Assembly: GCA_049966775.1 (NCBI GenBank)
Contig: JBMFTZ010000001.1
Span: forward strand, 21,167 to 85,166
Direction of reading: 5' to 3'
Origin: Candidatus Micrarchaeia archaeon
GTDB lineage: Archaea; Micrarchaeota; Micrarchaeia; Micrarchaeales; Micrarchaeaceae
Length of the DNA: 64,000 bases
This document shows positions 1,099 through 21,408 of this stretch, in pieces; the first letter of the stretch is position 1; each line of letters begins with the position of its first letter. The notes under the pieces are model-generated. The model worked only from the letters and a program-made list of their open reading frames with translations, was not told the DNA's origin and made no database searches. The translations under genes and the position numbers were made by a program.

Positions 1099-2180
1099 TA
1101 CAACAGCCTCTTAAGGGTCCTAGACGAACTCAGGCTCTGGGCGCCGAGCAGGTCGCCCAGCACCTCCATGAAATTGTACGATATTATGAACGAAAGCACC
1201 ACGCTTATAACGTAGAAAAGCGACGGTTCCATCACGCTGCGTATGAAGCCTATCAAAATCCCTGAGCCCTTGGTGTTGCTCTCCACGATGCTTTGAAGCT
1301 GCGTGAGGGTGCCAGTAACGGAGCTGAAGCTTGATGCGGAAGCGGAGCCGCTCACAAGCGAACTGTATGATGAGCTGCTTGCGACCGGAGCGGATACAGT
1401 AAACGACGAAGTGAATACGTATAACATGAGGGGCAGCACTATGAAGAAACCGACGAACATCCCCAGGAACGCGCCTCCTGCAGCTCTGGTCCACGGGATG
1501 GTGCGCAGCACAATGCCTGCAAAAAAGAACAGCGGGAAGAGCTTGTATACTATCAACAGCACAAACATCGTGGCAAGAAGCAAGCCGAAGAACGCGCCGG
1601 TTATATTGAGCATCATCTTGATCACGCTGTTCACCACGGTAAGCCCGGCCCATGGCGAGAACGCAACGCCAAAGAATACTGGCTGTATCGTGACCTGCAC
1701 TGAAGCCAGGAACGATACCACCATTTCGTTTATGATAAGCTCTATGATAGGCACCACCATGCCAAGCGAGGTGCTGTAGAGCGCCTCGCAGTCGTACATG
1801 TATATGCCGCTTCCGAACGTGCCCTTGCCTATCGCCAGGAAATTACCGGGTGTTGAGACCGAAGTGACCGCAAACGCGCCCAAGAAGACAAATACTATAA
1901 GCAGCGTTATGACCACTTCGCCTATCTCGCTTTTTGCGAACCTGACGAGCTTATCCACTTTTATCGCGTAGCCGATGGCGTAGAGCATGCCTGCTATGAT
2001 GAGCATTATAAGCATCAATATCAGGGATATGGAAAGCAGCGTCGTTACGGAGGTGCCACCGGGCAGCACATTGCCTCCAGTGAAGAGATTGCTGCAGAAG
2101 GCGGCGGCATCTGCGCCAGATATGCTTGGCGCCGCTAACAGAAGCAGGGCAACCAGCAGCAATACGTTTTTGCGCATCAT
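1098..2180 (-). CDS. polytopic membrane protein, tandem-family paralog 4 (signal peptide plus multiple TM helices)
   Basis: 360-aa ORF. N-terminal MMRKNVLLLVALLLLAAPSISG. Motifs KSEIGEVVITLLIVFVF and VLRTIPWTRAAGGAFLGMFVGFFIVLP. Start/stop overlaps with both neighbours. Confidence 0.8.
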   Translation of the reverse strand: MMRKNVLLLVALLLLAAPSISGADAAAFCSNLFTGGNVLPGGTSVTTLLSISLILMLIMLIIAGMLYAIGYAIKVDKLVRFAKSEIGEVVITLLIVFVFLGAFAVTSVSTPGNFLAIGKGTFGSGIYMYDCEALYSTSLGMVVPIIELIINEMVVSFLASVQVTIQPVFFGVAFSPWAGLTVVNSVIKMMLNITGAFFGLLLATMFVLLIVYKLFPLFFFAGIVLRTIPWTRAAGGAFLGMFVGFFIVLPLMLYVFTSSFTVSAPVASSSSYSSLVSGSASASSFSSVTGTLTQLQSIVESNTKGSGILIGFIRSVMEPSLFYVISVVLSFIISYNFMEVLGDLLGAQSLSSSRTLKRLL

Positions 2181-3571
2181 ACCAGCCTCGCCAATCCCGC
2201 AAGCTCAGTGTCGCCTCCGAGCAGTGAGGAGACTCCGAGCACGGCTGACAGTGTAACCATAAGGTTTATGAGCGGCAGGAAATAGGCGGTCACGCCCATT
2301 ATGCCGTAGATCTGAAAGAGCATGTATGTGGCAGGCATCACGCTGCTCGGCGGGCACATCGCGGGCAGGTAGAAATACGGGGCCACGTTGCCGCTTTCTG
2401 CGGCTGAAAGCAAGCCGGCTCCAACGCTGTAGAAAGGTATGAGCAGCACGCCTACGTCTTCGGCCTCGCCTTCTAGTAAGTTGTCACCTGGGGGCATGCA
2501 GCCTAGATGGCCAAGCGCCTGCTGCACGCTTGGCATTGCGAAGAAGTTGAGGGTATATGTGCTTGTCGAGCTGGAAACACTGTTTGAAGGTATGGAGGTT
2601 ACTGTAGAATAGCCGAAGGCTGTGTTGTAGTAGGCGCTGCTGTTTGCAAGGGAAAGATACTCCATCGCGTATATGGCAGGCAGAAAGACGAGGAAACCCA
2701 ATGCAGCTGCAATCAAGAGACCGCCAATCTTCCTTGTAAAGAACACGGAACGGAGCAGCAGCCCGAAGAATATCAGGAACGGCCATACGTCTATCGCTAT
2801 GACGTTAATGGAGAGCTGCGCCACGAACGATTCGACAGCTGTCGTCATCAATGTCCCTAGCGGCGTGAGGAGCCTGTATATCATCGAGTAGCCTGAAAAC
2901 GGGGTAAACTGCACATGCAGCAGGAAATCGGGCACTGAAAGCGTGCCATACAAGGGTATTACGCACGGGCTCACCCACCCGGGGTAGACGCACACGTTAA
3001 CCTGCGGGCTCAGCTTTGAGAGGAAGCCTATCCACGCATCGAACAGAAAAGCGCCGTTGTAGTCTGCTACCGACTGGTTTGTGAGGTTTGCCATTATCAC
3101 GCTCGTGGCAGCAAGCGGATAATCCAGCTGCGCGGTAAGGCTCGGGCTTGAGCCGAGGTTCACCATGCTGCACAGCCCGCTGAAACCTGTAGACGGATTG
3201 CCGCCCAGGTAAGCACCGAGTATGTTGAACGGGTTTGATGTTGTGGATTCGTAGCCGTTTATGTTGTTGCACATTGTGGTTATAGCATTCGAGTTCATAA
3301 GTTTGGTGCTATTGAGGATTGAGATATAGGTGGAAGCTATCACGTACGCGGAGCCAACCACTATGGCTATGAGTATGGCGGTGCCTATGAGCTGGTAGAA
3401 CTCGTTCGTCGCTCCCGCCTTGACCGTGGGGTTGCCAAGGAGCGCGCCTATTATGTACCAAAGCGCTATGAATGCTGAATCGAGCAACAGGGCCATGAGC
3501 ACAAGCGGCATAAGCATGCTTTTCACTGACGTGAATCCGGCATTGAACAGGAACATGCTTATCGGTATCAT
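2177..3571 (-). CDS. polytopic membrane protein, tandem-family paralog 3
   Basis: 464-aa ORF. Motifs TNEFYQLIGTAILIAIV and LLRSVFFTRKIGGLLIAAALGFLVFLP. Ser/Thr/Asn-rich loops between TM blocks. ATGA overlap with the downstream paralog. Confidence 0.8.
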   Translation of the reverse strand: MIPISMFLFNAGFTSVKSMLMPLVLMALLLDSAFIALWYIIGALLGNPTVKAGATNEFYQLIGTAILIAIVVGSAYVIASTYISILNSTKLMNSNAITTMCNNINGYESTTSNPFNILGAYLGGNPSTGFSGLCSMVNLGSSPSLTAQLDYPLAATSVIMANLTNQSVADYNGAFLFDAWIGFLSKLSPQVNVCVYPGWVSPCVIPLYGTLSVPDFLLHVQFTPFSGYSMIYRLLTPLGTLMTTAVESFVAQLSINVIAIDVWPFLIFFGLLLRSVFFTRKIGGLLIAAALGFLVFLPAIYAMEYLSLANSSAYYNTAFGYSTVTSIPSNSVSSSTSTYTLNFFAMPSVQQALGHLGCMPPGDNLLEGEAEDVGVLLIPFYSVGAGLLSAAESGNVAPYFYLPAMCPPSSVMPATYMLFQIYGIMGVTAYFLPLINLMVTLSAVLGVSSLLGGDTELAGLARLV

Positions 3572-3579
3572 TAAGTCAC

Positions 3580-4740
3580 CTACAGATTGCCCCAGAATGT
3601 TGATGCGCCTTCCACGCCGCTGTTCAGGGCCTTTGCAACACCCATCGCAAGCCCCGCCGTGACTCCTATGTTTATCGCAAACATGAATATTCCCACAAAC
3701 ATGAACTTTGAAATCTCCTCTATTATGGTGTTTGTCACATACGGCGCTGTCAAAACGCTTGATGCCAGTGATCCAAGCTCTGCCAGGGGATTGAGACTTA
3801 TGCCGGCGCTGCTCACGAACGACTGCAAGTAAGATGGAGCAGTGCTCGGGTTGCCCGCTACGAGGCTGCTCGAAGGAAGCTCGGCAAAGAACGCGCTTGG
3901 CGAATAGGGCGTGAAGGTGTAAGCGTATGAAAGGTACTTGTATGAGGGGTTGTTTGCCGAAAATATCCAGCTCACCGCGTAACCGTCAAACCCCACCATG
4001 AGCGGGTATACGAGATACGCCGCTATCGCTATGGCAAGAAACGCGTTTGCGGTGTTCCTGAGGTTGCCGCCAACAAACGAGAGGGAGCGCATCACCAGCG
4101 CCACGGGAAGCACCACTATGAACGCGGTGTACTCAAGCAGAGGCAGCATCACCCACTGCAGGTAGAGGGCGCCGATCGTGGTTATGAGAACCATCGCGAA
4201 AACAGACATGTACACGTCGCTTAGTATCTTGAACACCTTGCCAAGGTTCATTCTCGTAGCGAACGAGACTGACAGGCCATTAAATTTTGCCGCAAACGCG
4301 AGCGGGTTATAGCCGTTTAGTATACTGCCGTACGACACCTCGAATATTGTGCTCTCTATGCTGTATTCAACTGACGTGAAGTACACCTTTGATAATAGGC
4401 TCAATCCGGAATTCATCGTAAGGTTTCCTATGTAATAATCAGCGAATTGGAACGGGCTGAGCGCCGATCCGGTCACTGTGCTGCTCATCGAAGTGGAGAT
4501 GCTGCAGGCGGCGCTAGCCATGCCGAGCAGCACCATAATTATTACTGCGCTGAGGAGCGCCTGGGTGAGCTCGGTTCTTACTGCGCTCGTCACCTTTCCG
4601 CTGAACCTTGAAGGCAGAATCCTAGAAATCGCAAGTATAAACGCACCTATAAGCAGGCTTACCAGTATTACGAGCAGGTTTATGCTAAGCCAGCTGTTCA
4701 CATATGTGGAGCCGCCCAATATCGCACATGCGTTTATCAT
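3580..4740 (-). CDS. polytopic membrane protein, tandem-family paralog 2 (most divergent motif)
   Basis: 386-aa ORF. Motifs RTELTQALLSAVIIMVL and VMRSLSFVGGNLRNTANAFLAIAIAAYLVYP. 7-8 nt spacers to neighbours. Confidence 0.8.
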   Translation of the reverse strand: MINACAILGGSTYVNSWLSINLLVILVSLLIGAFILAISRILPSRFSGKVTSAVRTELTQALLSAVIIMVLLGMASAACSISTSMSSTVTGSALSPFQFADYYIGNLTMNSGLSLLSKVYFTSVEYSIESTIFEVSYGSILNGYNPLAFAAKFNGLSVSFATRMNLGKVFKILSDVYMSVFAMVLITTIGALYLQWVMLPLLEYTAFIVVLPVALVMRSLSFVGGNLRNTANAFLAIAIAAYLVYPLMVGFDGYAVSWIFSANNPSYKYLSYAYTFTPYSPSAFFAELPSSSLVAGNPSTAPSYLQSFVSSAGISLNPLAELGSLASSVLTAPYVTNTIIEEISKFMFVGIFMFAINIGVTAGLAMGVAKALNSGVEGASTFWGNL

Positions 4741-4747
4741 ACCAACA

Positions 4748-6091
4748 CTACGTAAGCTTCATCTTCCCTATGCCCATCTTGCTCAGGCTCATCGTGCCGC
4801 CCAGCATCCTTGCTATCTGGTTCACCACGGCGAGCCCTATCACCAGGTCGAACACGAACAGGAAGAACTGGATCAGCAGGTAGCTTGTCTGGTTCACCAC
4901 AAAGTTTAGAATGCCCACTATGCTGCTTGACAGGGGCGAAAAAAATCCGGCATTTGAGCCGGCGTTAAACCCGTCTATCATTTGGGTACCGATATTCGGA
5001 TAGCCTTGCACTACCGGATTGCCGCCCATGACGAACGTGAGCAAAAAGCCCCCACGTATAAAATACAGGTCATTTTCGAAATATTGCACGACGTAATTGA
5101 TCAGTTGCCCTAGAAGACCGGGCGCCGGGGGTGCCGAGCTCACTGACACGATTTGCGAAGGCAGTATGCTGGACAGATAGTCGGATATGGGCTGGTTAAA
5201 GCCCACGAGCAGCACTGGATACACAAGCGAGGCGCCTATGCCGAGAGCAATAAACGTGCCGCCGATGCCACGCGTGAAAGGCAGCGCCCTGAGTATAATG
5301 CCGACAGGCAGCAGCCCGCCCAGGCCCAGCAACATGACCACGCCCAAGAAGTCGTACTGGAACTGGAACGCGTAGAGCATTGGGAATATGACAAGGGTGA
5401 ACATGTCCTTTATGAATGAGAACACCGCCGCAGAAGAGAGCGTCTCTATGTAGCTGCTAACGTAAATGTTAGCAAGGGAGCCAAACTGGATTGTCAGTAT
5501 GGGCACCGGCACTGGCGGTATCGGCAGCGGGAACCACGTGCCCAATGATATGCTCTTCAGCGCGGCTATGCCCTGCGACACGCCCATCATGGTAGCAAAG
5601 TCGACATACGACTGCGCAAGCCCGTATGCAAGGTAGCTTGTGGCGCCGTTGCACAGCCCCTGGAGGTTTGTGTTAAGGCTGCCCAATATGGATGATGAAC
5701 CGCTCGTTTGCAGCGACGCACTGTTGCCCACAAGCATGTTTGCTATGGCGCTTGCTATGACAATCGATGAGAACAAGACCACTATTATGATTACGCTTTT
5801 CGAAACTTCCCAGAGCTCCGTCCTATACCAGCCTTTCAGCGGGCCGTAGTTGAGCACCTCTCCAGCCATATAGGAAACCGCTATAAGGAGGAATGAGATG
5901 GCAATGCCGATTGCTGCGAGCCCGATGAACGTGGCGAAAGCTGAAGCGCCAAGAGTCATGCTGCATACGCTCTGCGCCGTGGACATGCCGGCAAGCGCGA
6001 GCAGCAAAAGCAGCATAAGCGGGGCGGCATGGCGCATACTGCGAGAGTAGCGTGCTGCAGCCTGCAAACCGCCCGGCCTTCGCTGCGTCAT
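4748..6091 (-). CDS. polytopic membrane protein, tandem-family paralog 1 (signal peptide)
   Basis: 447-aa ORF. Hydrophobic leader LMLLLLLALAGMSTAQS. Motifs RTELWEVSKSVIIIVVL and ILRALPFTRGIGGTFIALGIGASLVYP. Its start overlaps the stop of the small upstream ORF (ATGA). Confidence 0.8.
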   Translation of the reverse strand: MTQRRPGGLQAAARYSRSMRHAAPLMLLLLLALAGMSTAQSVCSMTLGASAFATFIGLAAIGIAISFLLIAVSYMAGEVLNYGPLKGWYRTELWEVSKSVIIIVVLFSSIVIASAIANMLVGNSASLQTSGSSSILGSLNTNLQGLCNGATSYLAYGLAQSYVDFATMMGVSQGIAALKSISLGTWFPLPIPPVPVPILTIQFGSLANIYVSSYIETLSSAAVFSFIKDMFTLVIFPMLYAFQFQYDFLGVVMLLGLGGLLPVGIILRALPFTRGIGGTFIALGIGASLVYPVLLVGFNQPISDYLSSILPSQIVSVSSAPPAPGLLGQLINYVVQYFENDLYFIRGGFLLTFVMGGNPVVQGYPNIGTQMIDGFNAGSNAGFFSPLSSSIVGILNFVVNQTSYLLIQFFLFVFDLVIGLAVVNQIARMLGGTMSLSKMGIGKMKLT

Positions 6092-6437: not shown

Positions 6438-7160
6438 CTATCGCTTGAGTAGTCTGAAGCGCTTCATGTACATCTCGCTCTGCAGCACCGCAAGGAAGGG
6501 CAGTATGAATAGGGAGTTGAATACGAGCATCGCGTACCTCGAGTAAACGGTGCCCGAAGCTGCTATGAACACAAAATCGAACAGCGTGATAAGCGCGATC
6601 GCAAGAAAGAGCCACAGTATGAAATAGTCGAAGCGCCTGAAGAAGAAGGAGACGCTTGCCCTGAAAGACCTTAGCACCTTGTTGTCATCTATCACAATGG
6701 AAGCGGGCGCGTAGAACACGAACGGCGTAACAACAAGTATTGCCACGCTGGTGATTATGCCTGAATAACCGGTGCCGAAGCTTAGCATGTCAACCAGTAT
6801 TATAACGGCGCTCAGCATCAGCAGCACTATGAAAACCTTGCTCGTATACCTTTCAAGGCCCCGCATTACCTCCCTTGTTATCTTTCTCTGGACGCGGCTG
6901 TGCTTTACTACCACGTTTATCGCAACGATTGCGAAGCTCAGGAAGAGGAGCGAGAAAAACAGCGACACGATTACCACCATGGATGAAAGCATGCTCATGT
7001 TGGAGAAGATGCTGCCGGTGCGCAGGAATATGCCGCCCGCATCATTGTAAGTTGGAAAGGCAGCAAATACAGGTATCAGGAACGCTATTACGAAGGCGAG
7101 CGAAAACGATAGTATTAGCTTTATGTTGCCCGCGTATGTGGACCATGCGTAAGAGAGCAC
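6438..7160 (-). CDS. integral membrane protein (about 6 TM), unknown function, operon partner of the pilin-like gene
   Basis: 240-aa ORF with alternating hydrophobic helices and basic loops (KHSRVQRKITREVMRGLERY, FFFRRFDY). It lies directly downstream of 7247..7627 on the same strand. Confidence 0.7.
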   Translation of the reverse strand: MLSYAWSTYAGNIKLILSFSLAFVIAFLIPVFAAFPTYNDAGGIFLRTGSIFSNMSMLSSMVVIVSLFFSLLFLSFAIVAINVVVKHSRVQRKITREVMRGLERYTSKVFIVLLMLSAVIILVDMLSFGTGYSGIITSVAILVVTPFVFYAPASIVIDDNKVLRSFRASVSFFFRRFDYFILWLFLAIALITLFDFVFIAASGTVYSRYAMLVFNSLFILPFLAVLQSEMYMKRFRLLKR

Positions 7161-7246: not shown

Positions 7247-7627
7247 TTAGGTGGCCTTGCAAGCGCTTGCAATGGAAGCGTTGCCCGTTATGACCTGGAG
7301 TATGTACGGCGCTATGACAGCTATGATCACGCCGATGACGCCGCCGAGGATCATTCCCATGCCGTAGCCCTGCACCTGCCCCTTCGTTTGGCCTGGTATT
7401 ACGTGCGCGCCGGCATAGAGGGCGCCTCCAAGTATTATAAGCACAAGGCCGAGTATGAATATGACGCTGACCACACCGTTATATACGCTGCATATCGCAT
7501 TTACTGCAGTAGTTGAGGATTGCCCATACGCAGCTGAAACAAGGCTCAGCAAAAGCAATAACGACATTGCGGGTCCGAGGATTCCCCTCGCGTTGAATAA
7601 CTTGCCGAACAATAAGCCCGTGTTCAT
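7247..7627 (-). CDS. VirB2/TrbC-like (CedA1/TedC-like) two-helix pilin-type protein
   Basis: 126 aa. Long leader ending LLLLLSLVSAAYG|QSS. It continues NAICSVY, then Gly-rich TM1 (VVSVIFILGLVLIILGGALYAG), a short basic loop (HVIPGQTKGQVQG), Gly-rich TM2 (MGMILGGVIGVIIAVIAPYILQVITG) and a short tail. This matches the architecture, and partly the sequence pattern, of Agrobacterium VirB2 as I recall it (..NNICTF..LAVLGIVAIGISWMFGRASLGLVAGVVGGIVIMFGASFLGKTLTGG). Confidence 0.6.
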   Translation of the reverse strand: MNTGLLFGKLFNARGILGPAMSLLLLLSLVSAAYGQSSTTAVNAICSVYNGVVSVIFILGLVLIILGGALYAGAHVIPGQTKGQVQGYGMGMILGGVIGVIIAVIAPYILQVITGNASIASACKAT

Positions 7628-7643
7628 GAAACCACTTCGCCTC

Positions 7644-7673
7644 TTTATATATACTAAAATACATTTAAATATG
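7644..7673 (-). promoter_or_regulatory. TATA-box region upstream of the pilin-like gene
   Basis: On the minus strand there is GTATATATAAAG (7644-7654) about 22 nt upstream of the ATG, and CATATTTAAATG (7662-7673) further up. Either gives a leaderless or very short-leader mRNA. Confidence 0.4.
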
Positions 7674-7836
7674 TATCGGTCGCACTGCTACGTATAAGCT
7701 GCCGACTTTATATTTTTGGCTCTGCAGCACGCGCATGCCATATGCAGAGCGCTTCACTTATGCGCCCCGGCCCACACATATAAATAGGATAATGTTGTAA
7801 TAAAGTTGCATATCGGGTGTGTAATAGGATGATCCT

Positions 7837-9531
7837 ATGAGGATATTGCAGCTTGACGTGGACAACATCACATACGAACTCGTAAAGCCAGAAGCGAGCG
7901 TGTACGAGGATTCGAACGAGAAAAAGGTGAGCGTAGACGATGCAATGGCTCTGCTCGTGAGCGTCGAGAAGGGCGACACGGAGAGCACCGCGGATCTGGC
8001 AGTGAAGGAAGCGGCAGAAACAATGGGCAAGCTGAAGAGGGAGCGCGTTGTGGTATACCCTTTCGCACACCTGAGCAACGACTTGGCTGAGCCGAAAGAG
8101 GCGATGCACATTATTGACTACATGTTCGACGCGCTGAACGGTCGCTTCGAAGCCAAAAAGGCGCCATTTGGCTGGAACAAGGCGCTCTCACTGAGCATAA
8201 AAGGGCACCCCCTGGCTGAGCAATCCAAGAGCTACGGCGCGGAAGGCGCAGGAGCCAAGCAGTATGCTAAGGCGAAGCCGGTGAGCGTAAACACTGCGAT
8301 AGTGAGGAAGAGCGATGTATCGGGCTTGCCCGCCAACGACCATAGAACCATCGGCGAGAAGCTTGACCTTTACAGCTTCCAGGAGGTATCGCCGGGCATG
8401 GTTTATTGGCACAGGAACGGCAACGTTATATTCAGGCAGCTCCTTGATTTTATGAGGGAGCTGCTCGACCACTACGACTACAGTGAGATAAGCACGCCGA
8501 CGCTTGCCAACATCGCACTCTGGCATGTGAGCGGCCACATAGAGCACTACAAGGACAACATGTTCATATTCGACAACAATGGGGAAAGCATGGGCATGAA
8601 GCCGATGAACTGCCCTTCTACAATACTGATATACAAATCGAGGAAATGGAGCTACAAGGAGCTGCCGTTCAGGACAGCCATATTCGACCATGTCTACAGG
8701 AACGAGATAAGCGGAGCGCTTACCGGGCTCTTTAGGGTGAGGGAGCTGACCCAGGATGACGGTCACATATTTGCCAGGGAGGATCAGATAGAAAACGAGG
8801 TGGCGCTGCTGCTCGAACTTGTAAACAAGGTGTACAGCACATTCGGCATGAAGTACAAGGCGAAGCTGTCGACGATGCCTGAAGACCACATGGGCGACGA
8901 GAAGCTGTGGGAAAAGGCGACCGAAGCGCTGAGGAAGGCACTCGATACCAACAAGATGGAATACGAGGTAAAAGAGAAAGAGGGCGCATTCTACGGGCCA
9001 AAGATTGACTTTGACGTGCTTGATTCTCTGGGCAGGTCGTGGCAGTGCGCCACCATCCAGCTCGATTACCAGCTGCCGCTCAGGTTTGGCATCACATATA
9101 CGGGTGAGGATGGAAAGGAGCACACGCCGGTGCTTATCCACAGGGCCGTACTCGGCACCATTGAGCGCTTCATGGGCATCATGATCGAGCATTTCAATGG
9201 AAGGTTCCCCACATGGCTGGCGCCCGTGCAGGTGCGCGTGATAACCATATCAGAGCATGAAAACGACTACGCCATGGAGCTATACAAGGCCCTGAAGAGC
9301 AACCACATAAGGGCGTACCTCGATGACAGCGACCGCACGCTTGAATACAAGATAAGGGAAGCCCAGACGCTAGAGGTGCCTTACATGCTTGTCGTAGGCA
9401 AAAAGGAAGCGGAATCGCATAGCGTGACAGTCAGGCAGAGGTCAGGCAGGCAGGAGCACGGCGTAAGCATAGACGCTTTCATAAAACGGCTATTGGGCGA
9501 GATAAAGGAGAGGAAGCTTGAGAGCGGATAG
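7837..9531 (+). CDS. thrS: threonyl-tRNA synthetase, archaeal type with N-terminal editing domain
   Basis: 564 aa. Class II core motifs (HRTIGEKLDLYSF, FRVRELTQDDGHIF, YGPKIDF, PVLIHRAVLGTIERF). C-terminal anticodon-binding domain. N-terminal MRILQLDVDNITYELV archaeal editing-domain-like start. Confidence 0.95.
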   Translation: MRILQLDVDNITYELVKPEASVYEDSNEKKVSVDDAMALLVSVEKGDTESTADLAVKEAAETMGKLKRERVVVYPFAHLSNDLAEPKEAMHIIDYMFDALNGRFEAKKAPFGWNKALSLSIKGHPLAEQSKSYGAEGAGAKQYAKAKPVSVNTAIVRKSDVSGLPANDHRTIGEKLDLYSFQEVSPGMVYWHRNGNVIFRQLLDFMRELLDHYDYSEISTPTLANIALWHVSGHIEHYKDNMFIFDNNGESMGMKPMNCPSTILIYKSRKWSYKELPFRTAIFDHVYRNEISGALTGLFRVRELTQDDGHIFAREDQIENEVALLLELVNKVYSTFGMKYKAKLSTMPEDHMGDEKLWEKATEALRKALDTNKMEYEVKEKEGAFYGPKIDFDVLDSLGRSWQCATIQLDYQLPLRFGITYTGEDGKEHTPVLIHRAVLGTIERFMGIMIEHFNGRFPTWLAPVQVRVITISEHENDYAMELYKALKSNHIRAYLDDSDRTLEYKIREAQTLEVPYMLVVGKKEAESHSVTVRQRSGRQEHGVSIDAFIKRLLGEIKERKLESG

Positions 9532-9537
9532 TGCAGC

Positions 9538-10887
9538 TCAGCGCCTTTCCCTGCTGGCTCCAAATTCCCTTACTGCGCTATGCGCGGGTACCTCCCTCCT
9601 TATGTAAGCTTCTATGCCCCTTACCATCTTTGCATTCCTGTATGCGTAGTACACAGCGCCTATGGCAAATATGAGCAGCGCCACCGCGAGGCTTTCCACC
9701 CCAAGGTAGAGCATCACGAGCAGTATCGTGGCAAAGCCCGAGAGCGGTATCAAAAAGAAGAGCCTGTGCCTTATCAGCGCCCTCTTGTCCTTCTCGAGCC
9801 TGAGCCAGAGGCTCAGGGCGGAGATGTTTATTATCGCGTATGCCGTCAATATGCCCGCGTTTGACAGCTCCACTATGGTCCTAAAAGAGACGAATAGTAT
9901 GAATAAAACCGCGAGCAGCGAAGACAGCAGTATGGCGTTTATCGGAGTTGAAAATTTGTCTATGTAGGAAAGCTTCTTTGGCAGCTCGCTGTCCCTGCCC
10001 ATAGCGAAGAAGACCCTTGAGACTCCGAGTATGCCAGTAAATATCACGCCCGCGGTGGCCACGACGCCGCCTATCGCCACCGCTATGTCGAGCGCGGTTA
10101 TGTGCAGCGAGCTAATCGCATAGGAGAGCGGCGCGGCGGAGTGCTCGAACTGCTGGTACGGCACAAGCCCCACGGCGCCCAAAGCGATGCAGATGTAGAG
10201 TAGAGATGAGATTATTATGGATACCATTATCGCCATGGGTATGGTGCTCCTGGGATTTTTCACCTCGTCGCCCACTGTTGTCACACGCGAGAACCCCGTA
10301 AATGCGAAGAATATAAGCGCAGATCCAGCAAGCACGCCATTGGCGCCATTAGGCGCGAAATTGGATATGTTTGCAACTTGGAAATGTGCCATCGAGAACG
10401 CCACAAAAAGCGCCAGTACCGCAAGATTTATGCCTACCATTATCGCAATTGTGCGGGCAGAATGCTTTATGCCCAGGATGTTTATTATCGCGAATGCTGC
10501 TATCGCCGCTATCGCATAGTATGCTGGATATATGCTCGTGCCTACGAGCAGGTTGAGATAGCTGCCGAAGCTGAGGCCGACTGCCGCCACGGCTATTATG
10601 TTACCTATGGTCCACATCCACCCGGCGAGAAATCCCGCGCTTGGTGCAAATGCATCCTTGGCGTATTCGTACACGCCGCCTTCCTTTGCCACGTGAAGTG
10701 CTATCTCGGAAAAGCTGAGGCCGCTCAGCACAGACACTATGGCAGCTATGGCTATTGATAAAACAACTGAAGGGCCCGCATCGCCTGCAGCAAGCCCTAT
10801 GATCACAAATATGCCCGCGCCGATTATGGCACCAAGGTTTATCATGAGCGCGTCGAAGAATGTGAGCGCGCGTTTCAGCTTGTACAT
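9538..10887 (-). CDS. APC-superfamily amino acid/polyamine permease
   Basis: 449 aa, about 12 TM. N-terminal LTFFDALMINLGAIIGAGIFVIIG is typical of APC transporters. Confidence 0.85.
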   Translation of the reverse strand: MYKLKRALTFFDALMINLGAIIGAGIFVIIGLAAGDAGPSVVLSIAIAAIVSVLSGLSFSEIALHVAKEGGVYEYAKDAFAPSAGFLAGWMWTIGNIIAVAAVGLSFGSYLNLLVGTSIYPAYYAIAAIAAFAIINILGIKHSARTIAIMVGINLAVLALFVAFSMAHFQVANISNFAPNGANGVLAGSALIFFAFTGFSRVTTVGDEVKNPRSTIPMAIMVSIIISSLLYICIALGAVGLVPYQQFEHSAAPLSYAISSLHITALDIAVAIGGVVATAGVIFTGILGVSRVFFAMGRDSELPKKLSYIDKFSTPINAILLSSLLAVLFILFVSFRTIVELSNAGILTAYAIINISALSLWLRLEKDKRALIRHRLFFLIPLSGFATILLVMLYLGVESLAVALLIFAIGAVYYAYRNAKMVRGIEAYIRREVPAHSAVREFGASRERR

Positions 10888-10950
10888 GATTTGAAATGCT
10901 CAGAAAAAATTATTAAGCCTGCACTGCCTGGCGAAAAAAGAAGGGAAGGC

Positions 10951-11304
10951 CTATCTGCGCACGTCAACCTCTAGAAGGCCTATTATGCTGCCGATGAACA
11001 CGAGCACAGCCCCGACGACAAAGCCGCCGCCGTCGACCATGCTTATTATGGAGGCAACAAGCGCCATGACCAGCCACATCTCGCTGCTTGCCTTCTTCTT
11101 GCCGAGCTCGCTTGCTGTGACAAGCACAAGAGCGCCGAGGAGCAGGCCGATTACCCCGAGAGTTCCGATGAAAACCCCTGAGCGGAACATCGTCAGCATC
11201 ATCGCGCCGACGCCCCCGAGCACAAGCGTGAAAAGCGCACCTATTATTATGAGAACGCCGCCTATGTAGAACAGCATCTTCGGTGCTATAAATCTGTTGG
11301 CCAT
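10951..11304 (-). CDS. small integral membrane protein, unknown function
   Basis: 117 aa, four hydrophobic Gly-rich helices. The overlapping alternative frame 10964..11317 is Arg-rich and implausible. Confidence 0.6.
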   Translation of the reverse strand: MANRFIAPKMLFYIGGVLIIIGALFTLVLGGVGAMMLTMFRSGVFIGTLGVIGLLLGALVLVTASELGKKKASSEMWLVMALVASIISMVDGGGFVVGAVLVFIGSIIGLLEVDVRR

Positions 11305-11358
11305 GTGTATTTTTCACTGTGAAAATCTAAAAAGCTTCCTATCAACTTTCGCTTTAAG

Positions 11359-11443
11359 TGCAGGGAGAGAGATTTGAACTCTCGCAGCCCTAAGGCACAA
11401 GGTCCTAAGCCTTGCGCGTTTGACCAGACTCCGCCATCCCTGC
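11359..11443 (-). tRNA. tRNA-Leu (anticodon TAG)
   Basis: rc reads GCAGGGA-TG-GCG..CGC-CAAGG-CTTAGGA-CCTTG, a long variable arm (TGCCTTAGGGCTG), then GAGAG-TTCAAAT-CTCTC-TCCCTGC-A. The cloverleaf folds by hand. TATA (ATATAAATA) lies about 30 nt upstream. Confidence 0.9.
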
Positions 11444-11648
11444 AAAACACCATTAATGCCTTATTGGCACGTATTTATATTCTTGAAACACATTTATAAA
11501 GAGAACGGAACGCCGCTTGCAAGCGTGCATGATGCAGAGCACAGAGCAGCTGCAGGCGCACGAGAAAAGTATATAAATATGAATTGCATAACGGATAGGT
11601 GTCTATATATCAGGTAATGCAGCTACGGTGCTGCGATAACATGATACT

Positions 11649-12947
11649 ATGATAACTACCAAATATGTGAGGGACAACCTGGAGGCGATAAGGAAGTCGC
11701 TTGAGACGAGAAAGGGCGGCTATCCGATAGAGGAGCTCCTGAAGCTCGACAAGGAGTGGCGCGAGAACAAGGCGAAGCTGCAGGAGCTGCAGTCGAGACG
11801 CAACAAGCTCAGCTTGGGGATAGCGGAGCTAAAGAAAAAGGGCGCCGACGAAGAGGCAAAAGACATGGCAGCTGAAGCGGCGCAGGTGAAGAGCGGCATA
11901 GACGAGCTGGGCGCCGAAACGGAAAAGCAAGAAGCCAAGATAGAATACCTCCTACTCAACCTACCAAACGTGCTGCACGAAACGGTGCCTTACGGCAAGG
12001 ACAGCAACGACAATGTCGAAATAAAGAGATGGGGCGAGCCATCAAATAGGAATGCATTAGGCCACGACGAGCTGCTTAAGAAGCTTGGTCTGCTTGACAC
12101 GGAGCAGGCGGCGGAAGTGGCGGGGGCGCGGTTCTACTATCTGAAGGGGGATCTCGCGCTGCTGCAGCATTCGCTTATGCGCTTTGCGATAGACGAGCTC
12201 ATCAAGAAGGGCTACGAGCTTATAGACCCGCCATTGCTCCTTAAGAAGCAGTACTACAAGGGCGTTACCGCCCTTGGTGACTTTGAGGAGATGCTCTACA
12301 GGGTTGGCGAGCCCGTGGAATCGAAAGGCAAGGGCATCGAGCATGTCGACGAGGATCTCTTCCTTATAGCGACATCGGAGCACCCGATCGCAGCAATGCA
12401 CGCCAACCATGTTTTCGCGGCGAAGGAGCTGCCAAAGAGGTATGTGGGATACAGCCCGTGCTTCAGGAGGGAAGCTGGCGCGCACGGCAAGGATACGAAA
12501 GGGATATTCAGAACCCACCAGTTCTACAAGGTGGAGCAGTTCATCTTTTCAAGACAAGAGGATTCGTGGAAGTACCACGAGGAGCTGCTACACAACGAAG
12601 AGGAGCTGTTCCAGAAGCTTAACATACCATACAGGGTCGTGAACATCTGCACCGGCGACATCGGCATCGTTGCCGCGAAGAAGTACGATATAGAGGCGTT
12701 CATGCCGGCACAGGGCGGCTACAGGGAAGTGACATCGTGCTCGAACTGCACCGACTGGCAGTCGCTCAGGCTGGACATAAAGTACGACGAGGGAAACCAG
12801 AGGAAATACGTGCACACGCTGAATGCAACCGCCATATCTGCGAACAGGGCGATGGTCGCAATAGTGGAGAACTACGCAATGGATAATGGAAAGATAAAGG
12901 TGCCCGACGTGCTCGTGCCGTATATGGGCAAAGATGTTATAGGGTAA
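11649..12947 (+). CDS. serS: seryl-tRNA synthetase
   Basis: 432 aa. N-terminal coiled-coil arm (MITTKYVRDNLEAIRKSLETRK..). Class II motifs (FRREAGAHGKDTKGIFRTHQFYKVEQF, TLNATAISANRAMVAIVENY). Confidence 0.95.
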   Translation: MITTKYVRDNLEAIRKSLETRKGGYPIEELLKLDKEWRENKAKLQELQSRRNKLSLGIAELKKKGADEEAKDMAAEAAQVKSGIDELGAETEKQEAKIEYLLLNLPNVLHETVPYGKDSNDNVEIKRWGEPSNRNALGHDELLKKLGLLDTEQAAEVAGARFYYLKGDLALLQHSLMRFAIDELIKKGYELIDPPLLLKKQYYKGVTALGDFEEMLYRVGEPVESKGKGIEHVDEDLFLIATSEHPIAAMHANHVFAAKELPKRYVGYSPCFRREAGAHGKDTKGIFRTHQFYKVEQFIFSRQEDSWKYHEELLHNEEELFQKLNIPYRVVNICTGDIGIVAAKKYDIEAFMPAQGGYREVTSCSNCTDWQSLRLDIKYDEGNQRKYVHTLNATAISANRAMVAIVENYAMDNGKIKVPDVLVPYMGKDVIG

Positions 12948-13040
12948 GGATGACGCAGCCGCTGGGGCGGCGCGCCATACCTGCATCTTTATCATTTTTG
13001 TTATTGCTTTTGGTTTTTACATTATTTCAGCGGCGAAAAA

Positions 13041-14246
13041 ATGAAGAAGGAATACGATATCAAGAAGGAGCTCAAGAGGCTTTCAAGCATAAGGGGCTCG
13101 GGCACTGAGCTTATCAGCGTTTATATACCGCCAGGATTCAACATTTCTGACGAAATAGGAAGGCTTAGGGACGAATATGGCCAGGCTTCCAACATAAAAT
13201 CGAAGACCACGCGGCTGAACGTGCAGGGCGCGATCGAGCGCATCATGCAGTACCTTAAGCTCTACAAGGAGCCACCCAAGAGCGGCCTTGCTGTTTTTGC
13301 AGGCAACATCTCCAGCATGCAGGCAAATCCCGACATAGAGCTGTTTTCGATAGAGCCGCCGATGCCGATAAAGGCCAACATATACAGGTGCGACTCCACG
13401 TTCCTTCTCGAGCCCATAGAGGAGATGCTCGAGGCCAAGGAGCAGTACATAATAGTGGTGATGGATGGCAGGGAGGCCACAATAGCACTGCTCAAGGGAA
13501 CGCACATAAACGTGGAGAAGAAGCTGCATTCTTTCGCACATGCAAAGGTCAGGAAAGGGGGCCAGAGCGCTGGAAGATATGAGCGCGCGATAAGCGAGAG
13601 CATCGAGGACTTCTACAAGCAGATAGGCGATTCCGTAAACGCGGTTTATGAAAAATACGGAGGCAAGATAAACGGCGCCATCATAGGCGGGCCAGGCCCG
13701 GCGAAGGACAACTTTGTCAAGGCCAAGACGCTAAACTACCAGATAAAAGTGCTGGGCGTGTTCGACACGGGCTATACCGACGAGCACAATGGCATAGACG
13801 AGCTGCTTGAAAAGGCGAAGGAGCTGCTTGCCGAGCAGGCGTCAGTGAAGGAGCGCCGGATCATGGACCGCTTCCTCAACGAGGTGTCAAAGAATGGCCT
13901 TGCGGCATACGGTTACGAGAAAGTGAAGGAGGAGCTTGAAAACAACAACGTGACGAGGCTTATAATAAGCGACGACATCGACCTAGCAAGGGTGTCATAC
14001 AGATGCAATTCGTGCGGCGCCGAGTTCACCGCGATAGAGCAGGGTAATACAAGGCAGCAGAAGCATTCGTGCGGCGGGAGCCTCACCATCACAAAGGAGG
14101 ACGATCCCATCAGGGAGCTTATAGACAAGGCCGACAAGGACGGCATTGAGGTTGTTTTCGTCTCTACGGACAGCCAGTACGGCAATGAATTGCTGCTTGG
14201 CTTCCAGGGCATAGGCGCCATGCTGAAATACAAGCACACCAGATAG
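13041..14246 (+). CDS. prf1: peptide chain release factor aRF1
   Basis: 401 aa. NIKS motif (QASNIKSKTTR), GGQ motif (RKGGQSAGRYER) and a C-terminal Zn-ribbon-like CNSCG...HSCGG. Confidence 0.95.
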   Translation: MKKEYDIKKELKRLSSIRGSGTELISVYIPPGFNISDEIGRLRDEYGQASNIKSKTTRLNVQGAIERIMQYLKLYKEPPKSGLAVFAGNISSMQANPDIELFSIEPPMPIKANIYRCDSTFLLEPIEEMLEAKEQYIIVVMDGREATIALLKGTHINVEKKLHSFAHAKVRKGGQSAGRYERAISESIEDFYKQIGDSVNAVYEKYGGKINGAIIGGPGPAKDNFVKAKTLNYQIKVLGVFDTGYTDEHNGIDELLEKAKELLAEQASVKERRIMDRFLNEVSKNGLAAYGYEKVKEELENNNVTRLIISDDIDLARVSYRCNSCGAEFTAIEQGNTRQQKHSCGGSLTITKEDDPIRELIDKADKDGIEVVFVSTDSQYGNELLLGFQGIGAMLKYKHTR

Positions 14247-14279
14247 TTGGGCTGCTTCTCGCATAAATCAAGCGCCGAA

Positions 14280-15473
14280 TCATACAGAGCATGCGCTGGT
14301 TATTGCCGATATTGAAGTGCCAGTTATAATCGAAAGCACGTACGGCGCCACCATCGCTATGATCACGCCGATGACGCCGCCGAGGATCATTCCCATGCCG
14401 TAGCCGAGCACAGGCCCGCGCTGCTGGCCCGGCAGCACATGACCGCCGGCATAGAGGACGCCGCCGAGGATCATGAGCGTAAGGCCTAGTATGAATATGA
14501 CACTCTCTATTGTGGTGTAAACGGAGCAGATGGCGTTCGTAGCTGCGCCAAGGTTGGCGATCGAGCCTGAGCCAAAGGTGGCCGAACTAGAACCTGAGCC
14601 AGAGCCTGAGCCAGAGCTCGAACCCCCAGTTGGGGGCGTGCCGCCGGAAAACACTGTGGTGGTAGACGTGCTGGTTGATGTTGTAGTGGTGGTGGTAAAT
14701 ATGTATGCTACAACCGCATAGCCGCCAGCCCCGTTAAGCGATCCCGAAACGGTATACGTTCCTGGCGATAAGTCTATGCACTGTGCTGCATAAGTGGTTT
14801 CATACGAATCGCCGCCGTTGTCGTAGAATAACTGGGTGCAACCGGGGGGCACAGTTATGCTCGAGCATTCAAACCAGCCGCATGACAGCGATAACACCAC
14901 GTCTGACGGGTTTGACACCGAGAAGGCCCAGTTGAACGAAGATGTGCCGCCGGACGCCGCGCCGCTCTCCGTAGTGTACGGGACAGACGAGTCAACAGCC
15001 ACGCCGCCGACAGCTATGTCCGAGTGGTCGGAAGCATCACTGCAGACGTTTGACCCCTGATTCCCTGCGCTTGCATAAGTTGAATATGAAGTGGCGTCGG
15101 GCGACCACGTATAGCTCCTTAGCGCGCCGTTGCCATCACCGCCATTGCAGAAGTAATAGTTGGCGCCGCTAGGCAGCGTGTAGCTGGCCGACCTGCTGCC
15201 CGTGGTCCCACCATACCCCACTATTGAAAATACAGATGTAGACGGTGAGCTTGAGCTCGCTGGGCAGCTGTAAGTTGACGAGCAGTAGCTAGAAGGGGCA
15301 GCACAGCCAACATAGCCGCCAACAACGCAGCAGCTTTCATAGCTCGGGCATGTTACGACACAGCCGCTGCCGGGGCATAATATGGTATAAGCGGTGGATG
15401 TATTAGAAACAAGCGAGAGGGCCGCAATGGCAAGCACCACCGATAGCATAATACTACTATAATGCTCGAACAT
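14280..15473 (-). CDS. modular surface protein: N-terminal anchor/signal, Cys-rich head, beta-rich Ser/Thr domain, Thr/Ser/Gly linker, C-terminal VirB2-like two-helix module
   Basis: Track ORF is 14280..15548. The likely start is M26 (ATG at 15473; MFEHYSSIMLSVVLAIAALSLVS). Cys cluster CPGSGCVVTCPSYESCCVVGGYVGCAAPSSYCSSTYSC. Linker TTTTTSTSTSTTTVFSGGTPPTGGSSSGSGSGSGSSS. The C-terminal ~85 aa is closely similar to 7247..7627 (NAICSVY..VIFILGL..LGG.LYAG.HV.PGQ..G...GYGMGMILGGVIGVIIA..APY.L..ITG). Confidence 0.75.
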   Translation of the reverse strand: MFEHYSSIMLSVVLAIAALSLVSNTSTAYTILCPGSGCVVTCPSYESCCVVGGYVGCAAPSSYCSSTYSCPASSSSPSTSVFSIVGYGGTTGSRSASYTLPSGANYYFCNGGDGNGALRSYTWSPDATSYSTYASAGNQGSNVCSDASDHSDIAVGGVAVDSSVPYTTESGAASGGTSSFNWAFSVSNPSDVVLSLSCGWFECSSITVPPGCTQLFYDNGGDSYETTYAAQCIDLSPGTYTVSGSLNGAGGYAVVAYIFTTTTTTSTSTSTTTVFSGGTPPTGGSSSGSGSGSGSSSATFGSGSIANLGAATNAICSVYTTIESVIFILGLTLMILGGVLYAGGHVLPGQQRGPVLGYGMGMILGGVIGVIIAMVAPYVLSIITGTSISAITSACSV

Positions 15474-15570
15474 GCTTCCAGCCTCGCCGAACGCTTTCCG
15501 GCAATATATTAAGCACCGAAAAGATATTAATAATGTGCGCGCATGCATAGGGCACGAGCGCCGTGCGCCT

Positions 15571-16125
15571 TTACGAGAGAGCAGGTGCTATGCCGCACTC
15601 GCCGAGGAACGCCGCATCGCCCTGCATTACGAGCTTGTCTGGCGTTATTATCGTGCTGTTCACGCTGCTGTAGTTTATGAACACGGAAGGCATGCTTTTG
15701 CTCACATTAATGCATTCGCTTACCGGCAGCTGCGTGGAATTGGATGCTTCCCCGAGCGCCTTGGAGCTCGTGAAGCATGCGGTCTGATTGATAACAAAGA
15801 AGTCAATAGTGGAAGCATTCCTGTGGTATTTGGCGCTCGAAACTATGTTCTCCACGATGCTTGTGGCGCAAGGCTCTGTGCTTGCAAACACCGTGCCGTT
15901 ATAGGCGGTCATGTATATCGCTACGCTCTTCGCTGAATGAAAGTTGCTTTCAAATGTGTAGAAGGGCTGCCCCGTGCTTGGATGATAGAAAAAGAGCAGC
16001 AGATCCAGCGCCACGAGCGCCGCTATCGCGTAATATGCAGCAGCATTGCCTTTTTCTGCTTGGCGCGCCGCGGCTCCAGCCTTCACGGCTTTGCCTGCAT
16101 TTCCATTGTTGTTGCTTCTCTGCAT
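15571..16125 (-). CDS. type II membrane-anchored protein with a 4-Cys ectodomain
   Basis: 184 aa. Basic N-terminus, one TM (AAAYYAIAALVALDLLLFFY), then a ~135-aa domain with 4 Cys and several N-x-S/T sites. The domain is homologous to the C-terminal domain of 16132..18189. Confidence 0.7.
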   Translation of the reverse strand: MQRSNNNGNAGKAVKAGAAARQAEKGNAAAYYAIAALVALDLLLFFYHPSTGQPFYTFESNFHSAKSVAIYMTAYNGTVFASTEPCATSIVENIVSSAKYHRNASTIDFFVINQTACFTSSKALGEASNSTQLPVSECINVSKSMPSVFINYSSVNSTIITPDKLVMQGDAAFLGECGIAPALS

Positions 16126-16131
16126 TGCTTT

Positions 16132-18189: not shown

Positions 18190-18223
18190 GTGGTCGCCCT
18201 TTCCATATATTATTGAGTAGAAA

Positions 18224-18233
18224 TATTTAAATA
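18224..18233 (-). promoter_or_regulatory. TATA box (palindromic TATTTAAATA) for 16132..18189
   Basis: TATTTAAATA lies about 40 nt upstream of the ATG at 18189. Confidence 0.5.
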
Positions 18234-18344
18234 CGTGTTGCCAAAAGGCGACGATAAAAATCCGTATTTAAGGAAGAAGCGCGGGCATAGATTCAAGAGA
18301 AGGCTCGGCAACAAATAGGCATTGAGGATTGAAAACAGAATCAA

Positions 18345-18395
18345 AAAGGATCAGAAAAACCTAAAAGAGAAAGAAAAAAGAAAGAAAGAAAGGCA
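18345..18395 (-). terminator. oligo-T-rich terminator region after the S-layer-like gene
   Basis: The plus strand is a purine tract (aaaagagaaagaaaaaagaaagaaagaaagg). On the minus strand this gives several T-runs immediately 3' of the stop at 18403, which is the archaeal intrinsic-termination style. Confidence 0.45.
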
Positions 18396-18402
18396 AGCAG
18401 GT

Positions 18403-21400: not shown

Positions 21401-21408
21401 CTATTCAC
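18403..21408 (-). CDS. S-layer-like surface protein
   Basis: 1001 aa, GTG start with AGGTGA 5 nt upstream. Signal peptide AAITAGAALLGLGLAFA. N-terminal QIVVGSAAKPSDGVAAANIAAAIGNLAF and C-terminal NLILVGSGYVNTL...RILIAGYYANQTTAAANAFI resemble archaeal S-layer N/C-terminal domains. Very Ser/Thr/Asn-rich with many sequons. Strong TATA. Confidence 0.7.
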   Translation of the reverse strand: MNSINAKKIAAITAGAALLGLGLAFASPVTFQNVPIISNAGAPQVQIVVGSAAKPSDGVAAANIAAAIGNLAFTSVPVTASVNATQAASVLHVVSVSNSSSHALVNPQVWLNESGTAISSGTYGFSALIGSVLNGAVPQNPGAATSTKSLQGSSSPYVYPEQYSIVASSPYTAESPYVNIGVPLATSVTATQNGGGVAFSSFSSGTNPAYDNILKVAPAGLLSSSGPTSETESLWVTGFPVYDQNAKSLALVDANLAYQVIFGSPINVKTSNAPTNQAFSLLGANYTTYNFSPPSITVNSGNFVTGGKISLAQAMTPSTIVNVSHSISAGNFTVKLQDLSYPSGTPAAIGVYYNGVLTNETSIGRFNTTEFNVSGHTLYVKVGQTFAGLYSYQRWARIQLFSNIVNLSSGSAFNSANPNYDVQLQWTTNATSSGSANELQGITIYGTSANSQTLLPDHSMELMTSPAVWKLTFLGQTLSPGSTDFDALQLATSTQSSVTYQNLAGSSSSYGVNDTAITEPANLFTVTSQIPNAFTVAGAGTSTLTYNLNPYELTETANYISSSLSGANAIVVEVVSAAPANSFVSSTYPLTVAVTGYTTQNSLTTQTATFDTASPAGDYYYYLPVSAPFNNVTNINMYLSSHAAVPNPGFTANVMDVINVNGLSAGEYTSSNAPTSGNYLTLATLSPYSSPEIMYTQAGKNYDLLTSGSSVTYQQPGQLQQTFTLAPTSVSTPGVRNEYFTYSIPEYPVPGVNSAPDTLTVGITNSTGGISATPLYYLNATAPSGTPSSLSNNVTYTPSGYTYNSPFNVPQGFITERGSEVASIGTTAVTLNLAKSVDMLQFAAGPSTTTITKSYKIYPTSGPGYTIGEATNLPNVSIANITASGIQASHYSISGISNITATPSVSTSDQPVLLSSLPTSPLVVLDSQANPASNLILVGSGYVNTLSAQLQKAYNISMTPTTQIDQAYGTNRILIAGYYANQTTAAANAFIQQLYAKAASS

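Follow-up and report, generated by a model that had tools for sequence, protein, structure and literature searches.

An identical 50-nucleotide patch in two pilin-like modules of a Micrarchaeia genome as the probable footprint of gene conversion

The window analysed here, a stretch of 64,000 nucleotides (nt) from a metagenome-assembled genome (MAG) of Candidatus Micrarchaeia (assembly GCA_049966775.1, locus tags ACP5UH_*), contains two related pilin-like modules that share a perfectly identical patch of 50 nt. One module belongs to a gene for a pilin-like protein of 126 amino acids (aa), here called FREE, while the second forms the C-terminal end of a fusion gene, FUS; in comparisons with other genomes the two window copies are termed W_free and W_fus. 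The patch is very probably the footprint of a recent, short and non-reciprocal recombination event, that is gene conversion, between two old paralogues of the pilin module. This view, which the original prediction had put forward, is supported because the duplication is old and the island of identity within it is young: the flanks of each copy group with their orthologues in other genomes, whereas the patch groups within the genome and is identical at synonymous sites that elsewhere vary freely. The features by which gene conversion is recognized, an excess tract length, homogenization of synonymous sites, a duplication that precedes the split of the lineages and a phylogenetic conflict between tract and flanks, are all found here. 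Recurrent gene conversion of prokaryotic paralogues is an established process, of which this pilin locus would be a new instance.

The window contains the 50-mer GCTATGATCACGCCGATGACGCCGCCGAGGATCATTCCCATGCCGTAGCC at just two places, 7320-7369 and 14356-14405, and the identity is, as had been claimed, exact base for base; no third copy was detected in the window, even when three mismatches were allowed, and the number of matches expected from shuffled sequences is 0. The two copies lie 7,036 bp apart in the same orientation, as direct repeats, and are read in the same register within open reading frames (ORFs) of the minus strand. Both encode the 17-aa peptide GYGMGMILGGVIGVIIA, which represents codons 87-103, in the second helix, of FREE (7247-7627, minus strand) and is located in the pilin module (14280-14543, minus strand) of FUS. 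The patch is embedded in a homologous core of 220 nt (7282-7501 and its partner 14318-14537, both minus strand) that is 75% identical when the patch is included and 66% identical without it, in agreement with the proposal that the flanks are only moderately similar, and mismatches directly abut the 50-nt tract at both ends. A further identical run of 14 nt, agtatgaatatgac, which had also been pointed out, is present in register at 7452-7465 and 14488-14501. As to whether additional copies of the module exist, a question raised at the outset, tblastn recovered only the FREE and FUS modules, and no third, in the 64-kb window. The codon that precedes the patch in FUS (window 14406-14411, minus strand) specifies Leu (CTC) at a position, residue 86 of FREE, where Gln is invariant in 52 aligned family members, and the putative conversion tract ends exactly at this Leu codon. 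The W_fus loop, PGQQRGPVL, is the most divergent among the FUS orthologues.

The age of the duplication was assessed in other Micrarchaeia genomes, from which loci (labelled L001-L019) were fetched and both modules extracted per genome for comparison; a degenerate pattern for GYGMGMILGGVIGVIIA, scanned over 185,579 species-representative genomes, yielded further Micrarchaeia copies. The gene order FUS, aRF1, seryl-tRNA synthetase (SerRS), permease, threonyl-tRNA synthetase (ThrRS), small ORF, FREE and operon is retained in L001-L004, L007 and L014, and the duplication is therefore old, preceding the split of several Micrarchaeia lineages. Both paralogues of L001 and of L004 also encode GYGMGMILGGVIGVIIA, and the DNA of the two pairs differs at 10/50 and 8/50 positions, respectively, all of the differences being synonymous. 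Across Micrarchaeia (L008-L011 included) the coding DNA of the peptide has at least eight versions, separated by 4-11 differences. A complete absence of differences (0/50) is confined to the window pair, with the other paralogue pairs differing at 4-10 of the 50 positions. In FK1.bin29 (loci L010 and L011) two tandem pilin modules lie about 1 kb apart (L011 7885-8000 plus L010 1-145, and L010 894-1223); their patch regions differ at only 4/50 nt, and one of the modules is extended C-terminally, not N-terminally, by a Thr-rich linker and a Cys-rich domain.

Helix 1 of W_free has its closest match in the FREE copy of L001, from which it differs at 19 positions compared with 28 from W_fus; helix 1 of W_fus is closest to the FUS copy of L001 (18 differences). 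When helix 1 and the C-terminal tail are considered, W_free is nearest to the FREE copy of L001 or L007, and W_fus to the FUS copy of one of the same two genomes; in the tail, each window copy is 11-12 differences from its orthologues, compared with 13 between the two copies. In the patch, W_free and W_fus show 0 differences and the next nearest sequence shows 7. Consistent with this partition, the site patterns of four-sequence comparisons place the sites that support orthology at the ends of the core, and those that support identity within the genome in the middle. 

It could be argued that the identity is an artefact of assembly or polishing, in which the consensus of the MAG was homogenized by path collapse or by mis-mapped polishing reads. 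The sequence is indeed that of a metagenome-assembled contig, and related assemblies struggle at this locus, GCA_049966495.1 with contig breaks and GCA_023270075.1 with runs of N and a perfect 4.8-kb repeat. It should be emphasized, however, that the ~66% identical flanks on either side of the 50 nt provide no shared anchors for bubble collapse, that both ORFs are intact and in frame, and that the breaks in the sister MAG are expected of real repeats at least as long as the k-mer, whereas a 50-nt repeat assembles through. The paralogue pairs of L001 and L004, furthermore, have the same sequences in independent ENA, JGI and NCBI assemblies. An artefact is thus very unlikely. We attach similarly little probability to histories in which the whole module was recently replaced and then diverged rapidly outside the patch, or in which the same foreign fragment entered both loci. 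The locus encodes a putative DNA-transfer apparatus, and foreign homologous DNA may conceivably have been available. Replacement, however, is at odds with the proximity of each copy's flanks, in helix 1 and in the tail, to their own orthologues, while the double uptake of the same 50 nt is less parsimonious than one intragenomic conversion. A matching 50-mer elsewhere was found neither in the 185,579 species-representative genomes nor in the JGI collection of metagenomes, and the degenerate peptide pattern, searched against metagenome contigs, returned nothing.

The original prediction had offered an alternative to gene conversion, namely that the second transmembrane helix (TM2) is under strong constraint at the nucleotide level. 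In that case the 50 nt would contain an element preserved as DNA or RNA in both genes, for example a regulatory site, an RNA embedded in the coding sequence or a rhythm of codons that serves membrane insertion. The patch does lie in the best-conserved part of the protein family, and several of its codons are minor ones. This alternative is, however, rejected by the variety of DNA versions in which other Micrarchaeia write the same peptide, and by the paralogue pairs elsewhere, which differ at 8-10/50 positions (4/50 in the tandem pair). Indeed, in all other pairs the rate of synonymous difference inside the patch equals that outside it, with 38-71% of degenerate codons differing inside and 43-64% outside, and there is thus no extra conservation of the patch. 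No Rfam family matches at the patch, and constraint of this kind is extremely improbable.

When 58 differences were placed randomly over the 222-nt core, a run of at least 50 nt was produced in 0/200,000 permutations (P<5e-6), and a conservative test, in which the same or different states of the conserved degenerate codons were shuffled, returned P=0.0028. As the peptide itself is conserved, the choice among synonymous codons provides the fairer comparison: at conserved degenerate codons the window pair displays synonymous differences at 0/14 inside the patch and at 19/39 outside (Fisher P=0.0008). Computed from the window's own codon usage, the probability that 16 codons agree is 1.4e-5; for agreement in exactly these codons, several of them minor (GTC, GGA and three instances of ATC), it is ~9e-7. 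In a survey of 26 pairwise module comparisons, within and between genomes, long identical runs were unusual only within genomes; the 50-nt run of the window pair was reached in 0/20,000 permutations, and none of the between-genome pairs contained a comparable run. Thus, although codon bias in the window is appreciable (GGC 63%; ATA 73% of Ile codons) and roughly one in two conserved degenerate codons outside the patch is identical as well (20/39), the permutation and codon-usage tests bear out the earlier judgement that chance, acting through shared amino-acid constraint and codon preference, is unlikely to give 50 nt, and leave this explanation with a negligible probability.

Exchange between the two modules is, as judged from the alignments, recurrent, with independent short tracts in different parts of the module in other lineages. 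The L001 pair contains identical runs of 25 nt and 17 nt in and next to the loop (P ~0.006 before multiple-test correction), and in the loop region the L001 paralogues are mutually nearest, with 9 differences compared with 13 to the next closest sequence. In the MAG GCA_049966495.1 (K5; loci L018 and L019), FREE and FUS share a perfect identity of 75 nt over helix 1, and the FREE copy of the closely related L017 differs from the K5 FUS at 10/84 positions in helix 1 and at 1/50 in helix 2. Within this K5/L017 lineage the loop between the helices still groups by orthologue, and the lineage-specific residues VSIAVAAPWVI are common to both paralogues. The L007 and L016 pairs, which are 64% identical with a longest run of 11 nt, display no sign of exchange. 

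The K5 assembly breaks inside both pilin genes at the borders of blocks shared by the paralogues (L018 3571-3888; L019 1-51 and 7115-7326). One contig ends exactly at the 75-nt block and the adjacent contig boundary is at the end of helix 2, while the tail of FUS contains a 51-nt overlap of K5 contigs 57 and 35. Scaffold WOZZ01002199.1 of GCA_023270075.1 (loci L014 and L017) contains the perfect 4.8-kb repeat mentioned above, with a period of 7,501 nt (L014 1-2813 versus 7502-10314; L017 5512-10338 versus 13013-17839), which comprises a 116-aa ORF, the permease, ThrRS, a 132-aa ORF and, from the pilin gene, the initial 314 nt. The same scaffold encodes a hybrid pilin, P0124, in which the front of FREE is joined to the tail of FUS at the end of helix 2; it also carries runs of N, and in its left part a second aRF1 and SerRS whose identity to the other copies is only 74%. 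An unequal crossover between the two modules would give rise to this apparent 7.5-kb tandem duplication, but an assembly problem at a real repeat (a double walk or a chimera) is at least as likely, and the duplication is used here as weak support.

With respect to mechanism, we propose that a break, gap or stalled fork in one copy would have been repaired, with the other copy as template, by homologous recombination that involved no crossover. The shortness of the tract may reflect a short heteroduplex, or the resolution of mismatches in small patches. Crossing over between the direct repeats would remove ThrRS, SerRS and aRF1, so that only the products of conversion or duplication would be expected to survive. 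The conserved helices would be the only stretches still similar enough to recombine, which may explain why the tracts are confined to them. In the window genome the conversion was most likely silent at the protein level, and neutral, because the paralogues of the nearest relatives both encode the identical peptide, and no selective explanation is needed. Over time, however, conversion may spread amino-acid changes to both paralogues, as appears to have occurred in the K5/L017 lineage, and such joint evolution could ensure that a decorated minor subunit still fits the major pilin, which would be useful if both pack into one filament.

Several points weigh against gene conversion as the origin of the patch. 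The most conservative test, taken on its own, gives only P ~0.003. The tract is short, and before conversion the identical runs would have been only ~8-17 nt, which is little homology for an exchange to begin with. Seven differences separate the patch from the FREE copy of L001 and 8-10 from the FUS orthologues and, with the diagnostic sites mixed, these sites do not decide the direction of transfer in the alignments. Finally, the evidence comes from the consensus of a single MAG of this lineage.

FREE encodes a leader, a first transmembrane helix, a short basic loop and TM2, and is the first gene of an operon for membrane proteins. The protein is 100% identical to ACP5UH_00145, a hypothetical protein of Candidatus Micrarchaeia, and has more than 150 relatives, essentially all of which are in Micrarchaeota-type MAGs and metagenomes. 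The AlphaFold2 model predicts a helical hairpin (helices 17-76 and 81-114; mean predicted local distance difference test (pLDDT) score 79, with 89-96 over residues 51-100), and the patch is in the second of these helices. The original prediction had labelled the modules pilin-like. For the family this is supported: 35/52 aligned relatives match PF04956 (TrbC/VirB2) at E<=1, irrespective of the gathering score, with a best value of 1.3e-8; nine relatives match PF18895 (T4SS_pilin), several carry precomputed PF04956 matches, and a VirB4-type ATPase is encoded in the orthologous operons. For FREE alone the label is less well supported: no Pfam family reached its threshold and the sole hit was PF18895 (E=0.62; 10.6 bits compared with a cut-off of 26.6). 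A search of the family profile against PDB sequences returned no pilin at E<=10, and Foldseek of the FREE model against the PDB gave only non-significant helical matches, none of them at E<=0.001 and with no pilin among the first 50, although a bare helical hairpin carries little signal in either search. Matches to NCBIfam, for example to lipoprotein signal peptidase, were weak and were discarded as spurious. Thus, a VirB2-like pilin of a system akin to T4SSs (type IV secretion systems) as well as to the archaeal Ced/Ted DNA importers is a reasonable working label that derives from the family and the gene context, and is unproven for FREE itself.

Downstream of FREE, on the minus strand, are five consecutive genes for polytopic membrane proteins (6438-7160, 4748-6091, 3580-4740, 2177-3571 and 1098-2180), the operon being cut by the start of the window. 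In sister genomes (L001, L004, L007, L014, L015 and L016, from ~10001 onward) the pilin gene is followed by genes for a membrane protein of 213-243 aa, about six consecutive, paralogous polytopic proteins (355-473 aa), two proteins of ~277 aa and an ATPase of 505 aa. The latter ends the operon in L001, L004, L007, L014 and L015 and, by its precomputed matches to PF01935 (DUF87), PF12846 (AAA_10) and PF19044 (TraG P-loop), is identified as a VirB4-type ATPase. The downstream membrane proteins did not match Pfam, even at E<=1, and a homologue search found relatives of this family, again without Pfam domains, only in Micrarchaeota. Their profile had no match in the PDB, an AlphaFold2 model of low confidence (pLDDT 61) gave no significant Foldseek match, and hhalign against the pilin profile was not significant; a likeness to VirB6 was thus not demonstrable by Pfam, PDB profile or fold search. 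Three of the window proteins share the motif R..P(F/W)TR..GG. In the searchable literature we found no paper that links Micrarchaeota to a VirB2-type system or describes this operon.

FUS (P0121, equivalent to ACP5UH_00180) extends over 14280-15473 on the minus strand and encodes 397 aa; the start annotated by NCBI is at 15449 (389 aa), and the open frame reaches to 15548. The pilin module, of ~87 aa, is a paralogue of FREE residues 41-126 with 70% aa identity (by tblastn and alignment). It is preceded by a low-complexity linker rich in Thr, Ser and Gly (14544-14699, minus strand) and by a variable, Cys-rich N-terminal surface domain (14700-15473, minus strand) with a signal peptide in front. 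Over approximately 215 aa this domain shares 67% identity with the C-terminal domain of the 467-aa protein P0122, and the same surface domain is thus carried by two unrelated filament scaffolds. The N-terminus of P0122, MHYKAQSAIEFLSTYLWALIIIAIV, resembles an archaeal type-IV-pilin (class III) signal, and the protein also carries PF18998. The position of FUS, between an ORF of 180-192 aa and aRF1, is conserved in every sister genome examined, and the length of its N-terminal part varies with lineage, from ~110 aa in L007 and ~170 aa in L001 and L004 to ~290 aa in the window and ~590 aa in L016 (gene spans L016 6979-9042, L001 1145-1993, L007 ~2338-3000). Extended relatives of 148-221 aa are numerous in the list of FREE homologues; a homologue search with the whole of FUS returned only two matches and was dominated by low-complexity words. 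In all FUS orthologues the motif N[LI]G[AGP]A[TQ]NAIC, with which the linker ends, stands directly before the module (window 14544-14580, minus strand; L001 ~1700-1735; L007 ~2700-2740; L016 ~8720-8750; L018 ~3620-3650), the linkers and N-terminal domains being otherwise unrelated. The motif could be a processing site, in which case the large N-terminal domain would be cut off, as a leader or as a protein set free, and would not decorate the pilus.

The interval between the repeats (7837-14246) contains genes on both strands: ThrRS (7837-9531, plus), which carries the archaeal editing domain, an amino-acid permease (9538-10887, minus), a tRNA (11359-11443, minus), SerRS (11649-12947, plus) and aRF1 (13041-14246, plus). 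Upstream of FUS, on the minus strand (15571-21408), are genes whose products are a protein of 184 aa (15571-16125), a membrane protein of 685 aa (16132-18189) and a 1001-aa S-layer protein (18403-21408; PF05124, TIGR01564), in an order that is the same in L001, L007 and L018, and FUS may therefore belong to a neighbourhood of cell-surface genes. Other neighbours in the window include alanyl- and aspartyl-tRNA synthetases (AlaRS and AspRS), STT3/AglB and 2-oxoacid dehydrogenase; these archaeal housekeeping genes indicate that the locus is chromosomal and not a mobile element.

In Neisseria, silent promoterless pilS cassettes donate variable segments to one expressed type IV pilin gene, pilE, and thereby create diversity. 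The Micrarchaeia locus resembles this system in the non-reciprocal transfer of short tracts between pilin copies on one chromosome. In contrast to Neisseria, however, the pilins here are of the VirB2 type, and the effect of the exchange is homogenization. Cassette variation of the Neisseria type does not fit, as each copy is a full ORF that has a start of its own, and conversion affected the invariant helix and not a variable region. A survey of recurrent gene conversion listed 26 prokaryotic genes, seven of them archaeal and all of these from methanogens, including a flagellin and no pilin (Wang & Chen 2018, PMC6053082). Most of the surveyed genes encode subunits of complexes or homopolymers, examples being tuf, fla and mtrA, and the process was considered rare (PMC6053082). 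Similar to these cases, the paralogues described here are older than the species split and were homogenized at synonymous and non-synonymous sites, repeatedly and in several lineages. Unlike the whole-gene conversions of that survey, the tracts here are mosaic and only 25-75 nt long, a DPANN archaeon is the host and, as FUS has an unrelated N-terminal domain, only the shared C-terminal module is exchangeable. In Sulfolobus acidocaldarius, short-patch, unidirectional homologous recombination has been demonstrated experimentally (Mao & Grogan 2012, PMC3367456). The tracts in that organism are short, sometimes discontinuous and without crossover, which fits both the sharp-ended 50 nt of the window and the two-tract mosaic of the K5/L017 lineage; that work, however, employed exogenous DNA in a crenarchaeon, whereas here the exchange would have taken place between chromosomal paralogues of an uncultured micrarchaeon.

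The Ced and Ted systems of archaeal DNA import contain the VirB2-like pilins CedA1 and TedC, share no recognisable sequence similarity with each other and were described with no mention of DPANN archaea (Beltran et al. 2023, PMC9905601). In common with Ced/Ted, the Micrarchaeia locus is chromosomal and non-mobile and encodes a small two-helix pilin-like protein, polytopic membrane proteins and an ATPase of the VirB4/HerA type; in contrast to Ced/Ted, it possesses six or seven polytopic membrane proteins encoded in succession, as well as a second pilin that is joined to a surface domain. The PDB profile search with the pilin family, which should include the CedA1 and TedC chains, returned nothing, and no direct comparison of components with Ced/Ted was made. 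The rvh T4SS of Rickettsiales, with its multiplied components (PMC2653234), is likewise a chromosomal T4SS-like system of a reduced-genome obligate symbiont, with several tandem polytopic paralogues and more than one pilin-like gene. The rvh system is bacterial, belongs to a diderm and has established VirB6 homology, whereas no similarity to VirB6 was detectable in the membrane proteins of the Micrarchaeia operon. In the paper on the Mia14 genome, type IV pili and possible conjugative islands are mentioned, and the term 'VirB' does not occur (PMC5498576).

A more speculative proposal, which on present evidence is rather unlikely, is that FREE and FUS co-assemble in a conjugation-type pilus that contacts Thermoplasmatales hosts, or exchanges DNA or other molecules with them. 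FUS would then be a minor or tip subunit whose hypervariable N-terminal domain recognizes the host, conversion would keep FUS compatible with FREE, and the locus would represent a new DPANN branch of Ced/Ted-like systems.

DPANN archaea have tiny genomes and, to our knowledge, their recombination biology is essentially unstudied. In the patch, one such archaeon would offer a clean and datable trace of homologous recombination within its own genome. From a practical perspective, the repeats at the pilin locus break or confuse metagenome assemblies. Although the patch itself is of moderate interest, the conserved locus that combines a pilin with a fusion protein is the more interesting lead. Pili-like contacts and DNA exchange have been proposed between Micrarchaeia symbionts and their hosts, and the operon described here is a candidate for the machinery that may mediate both.

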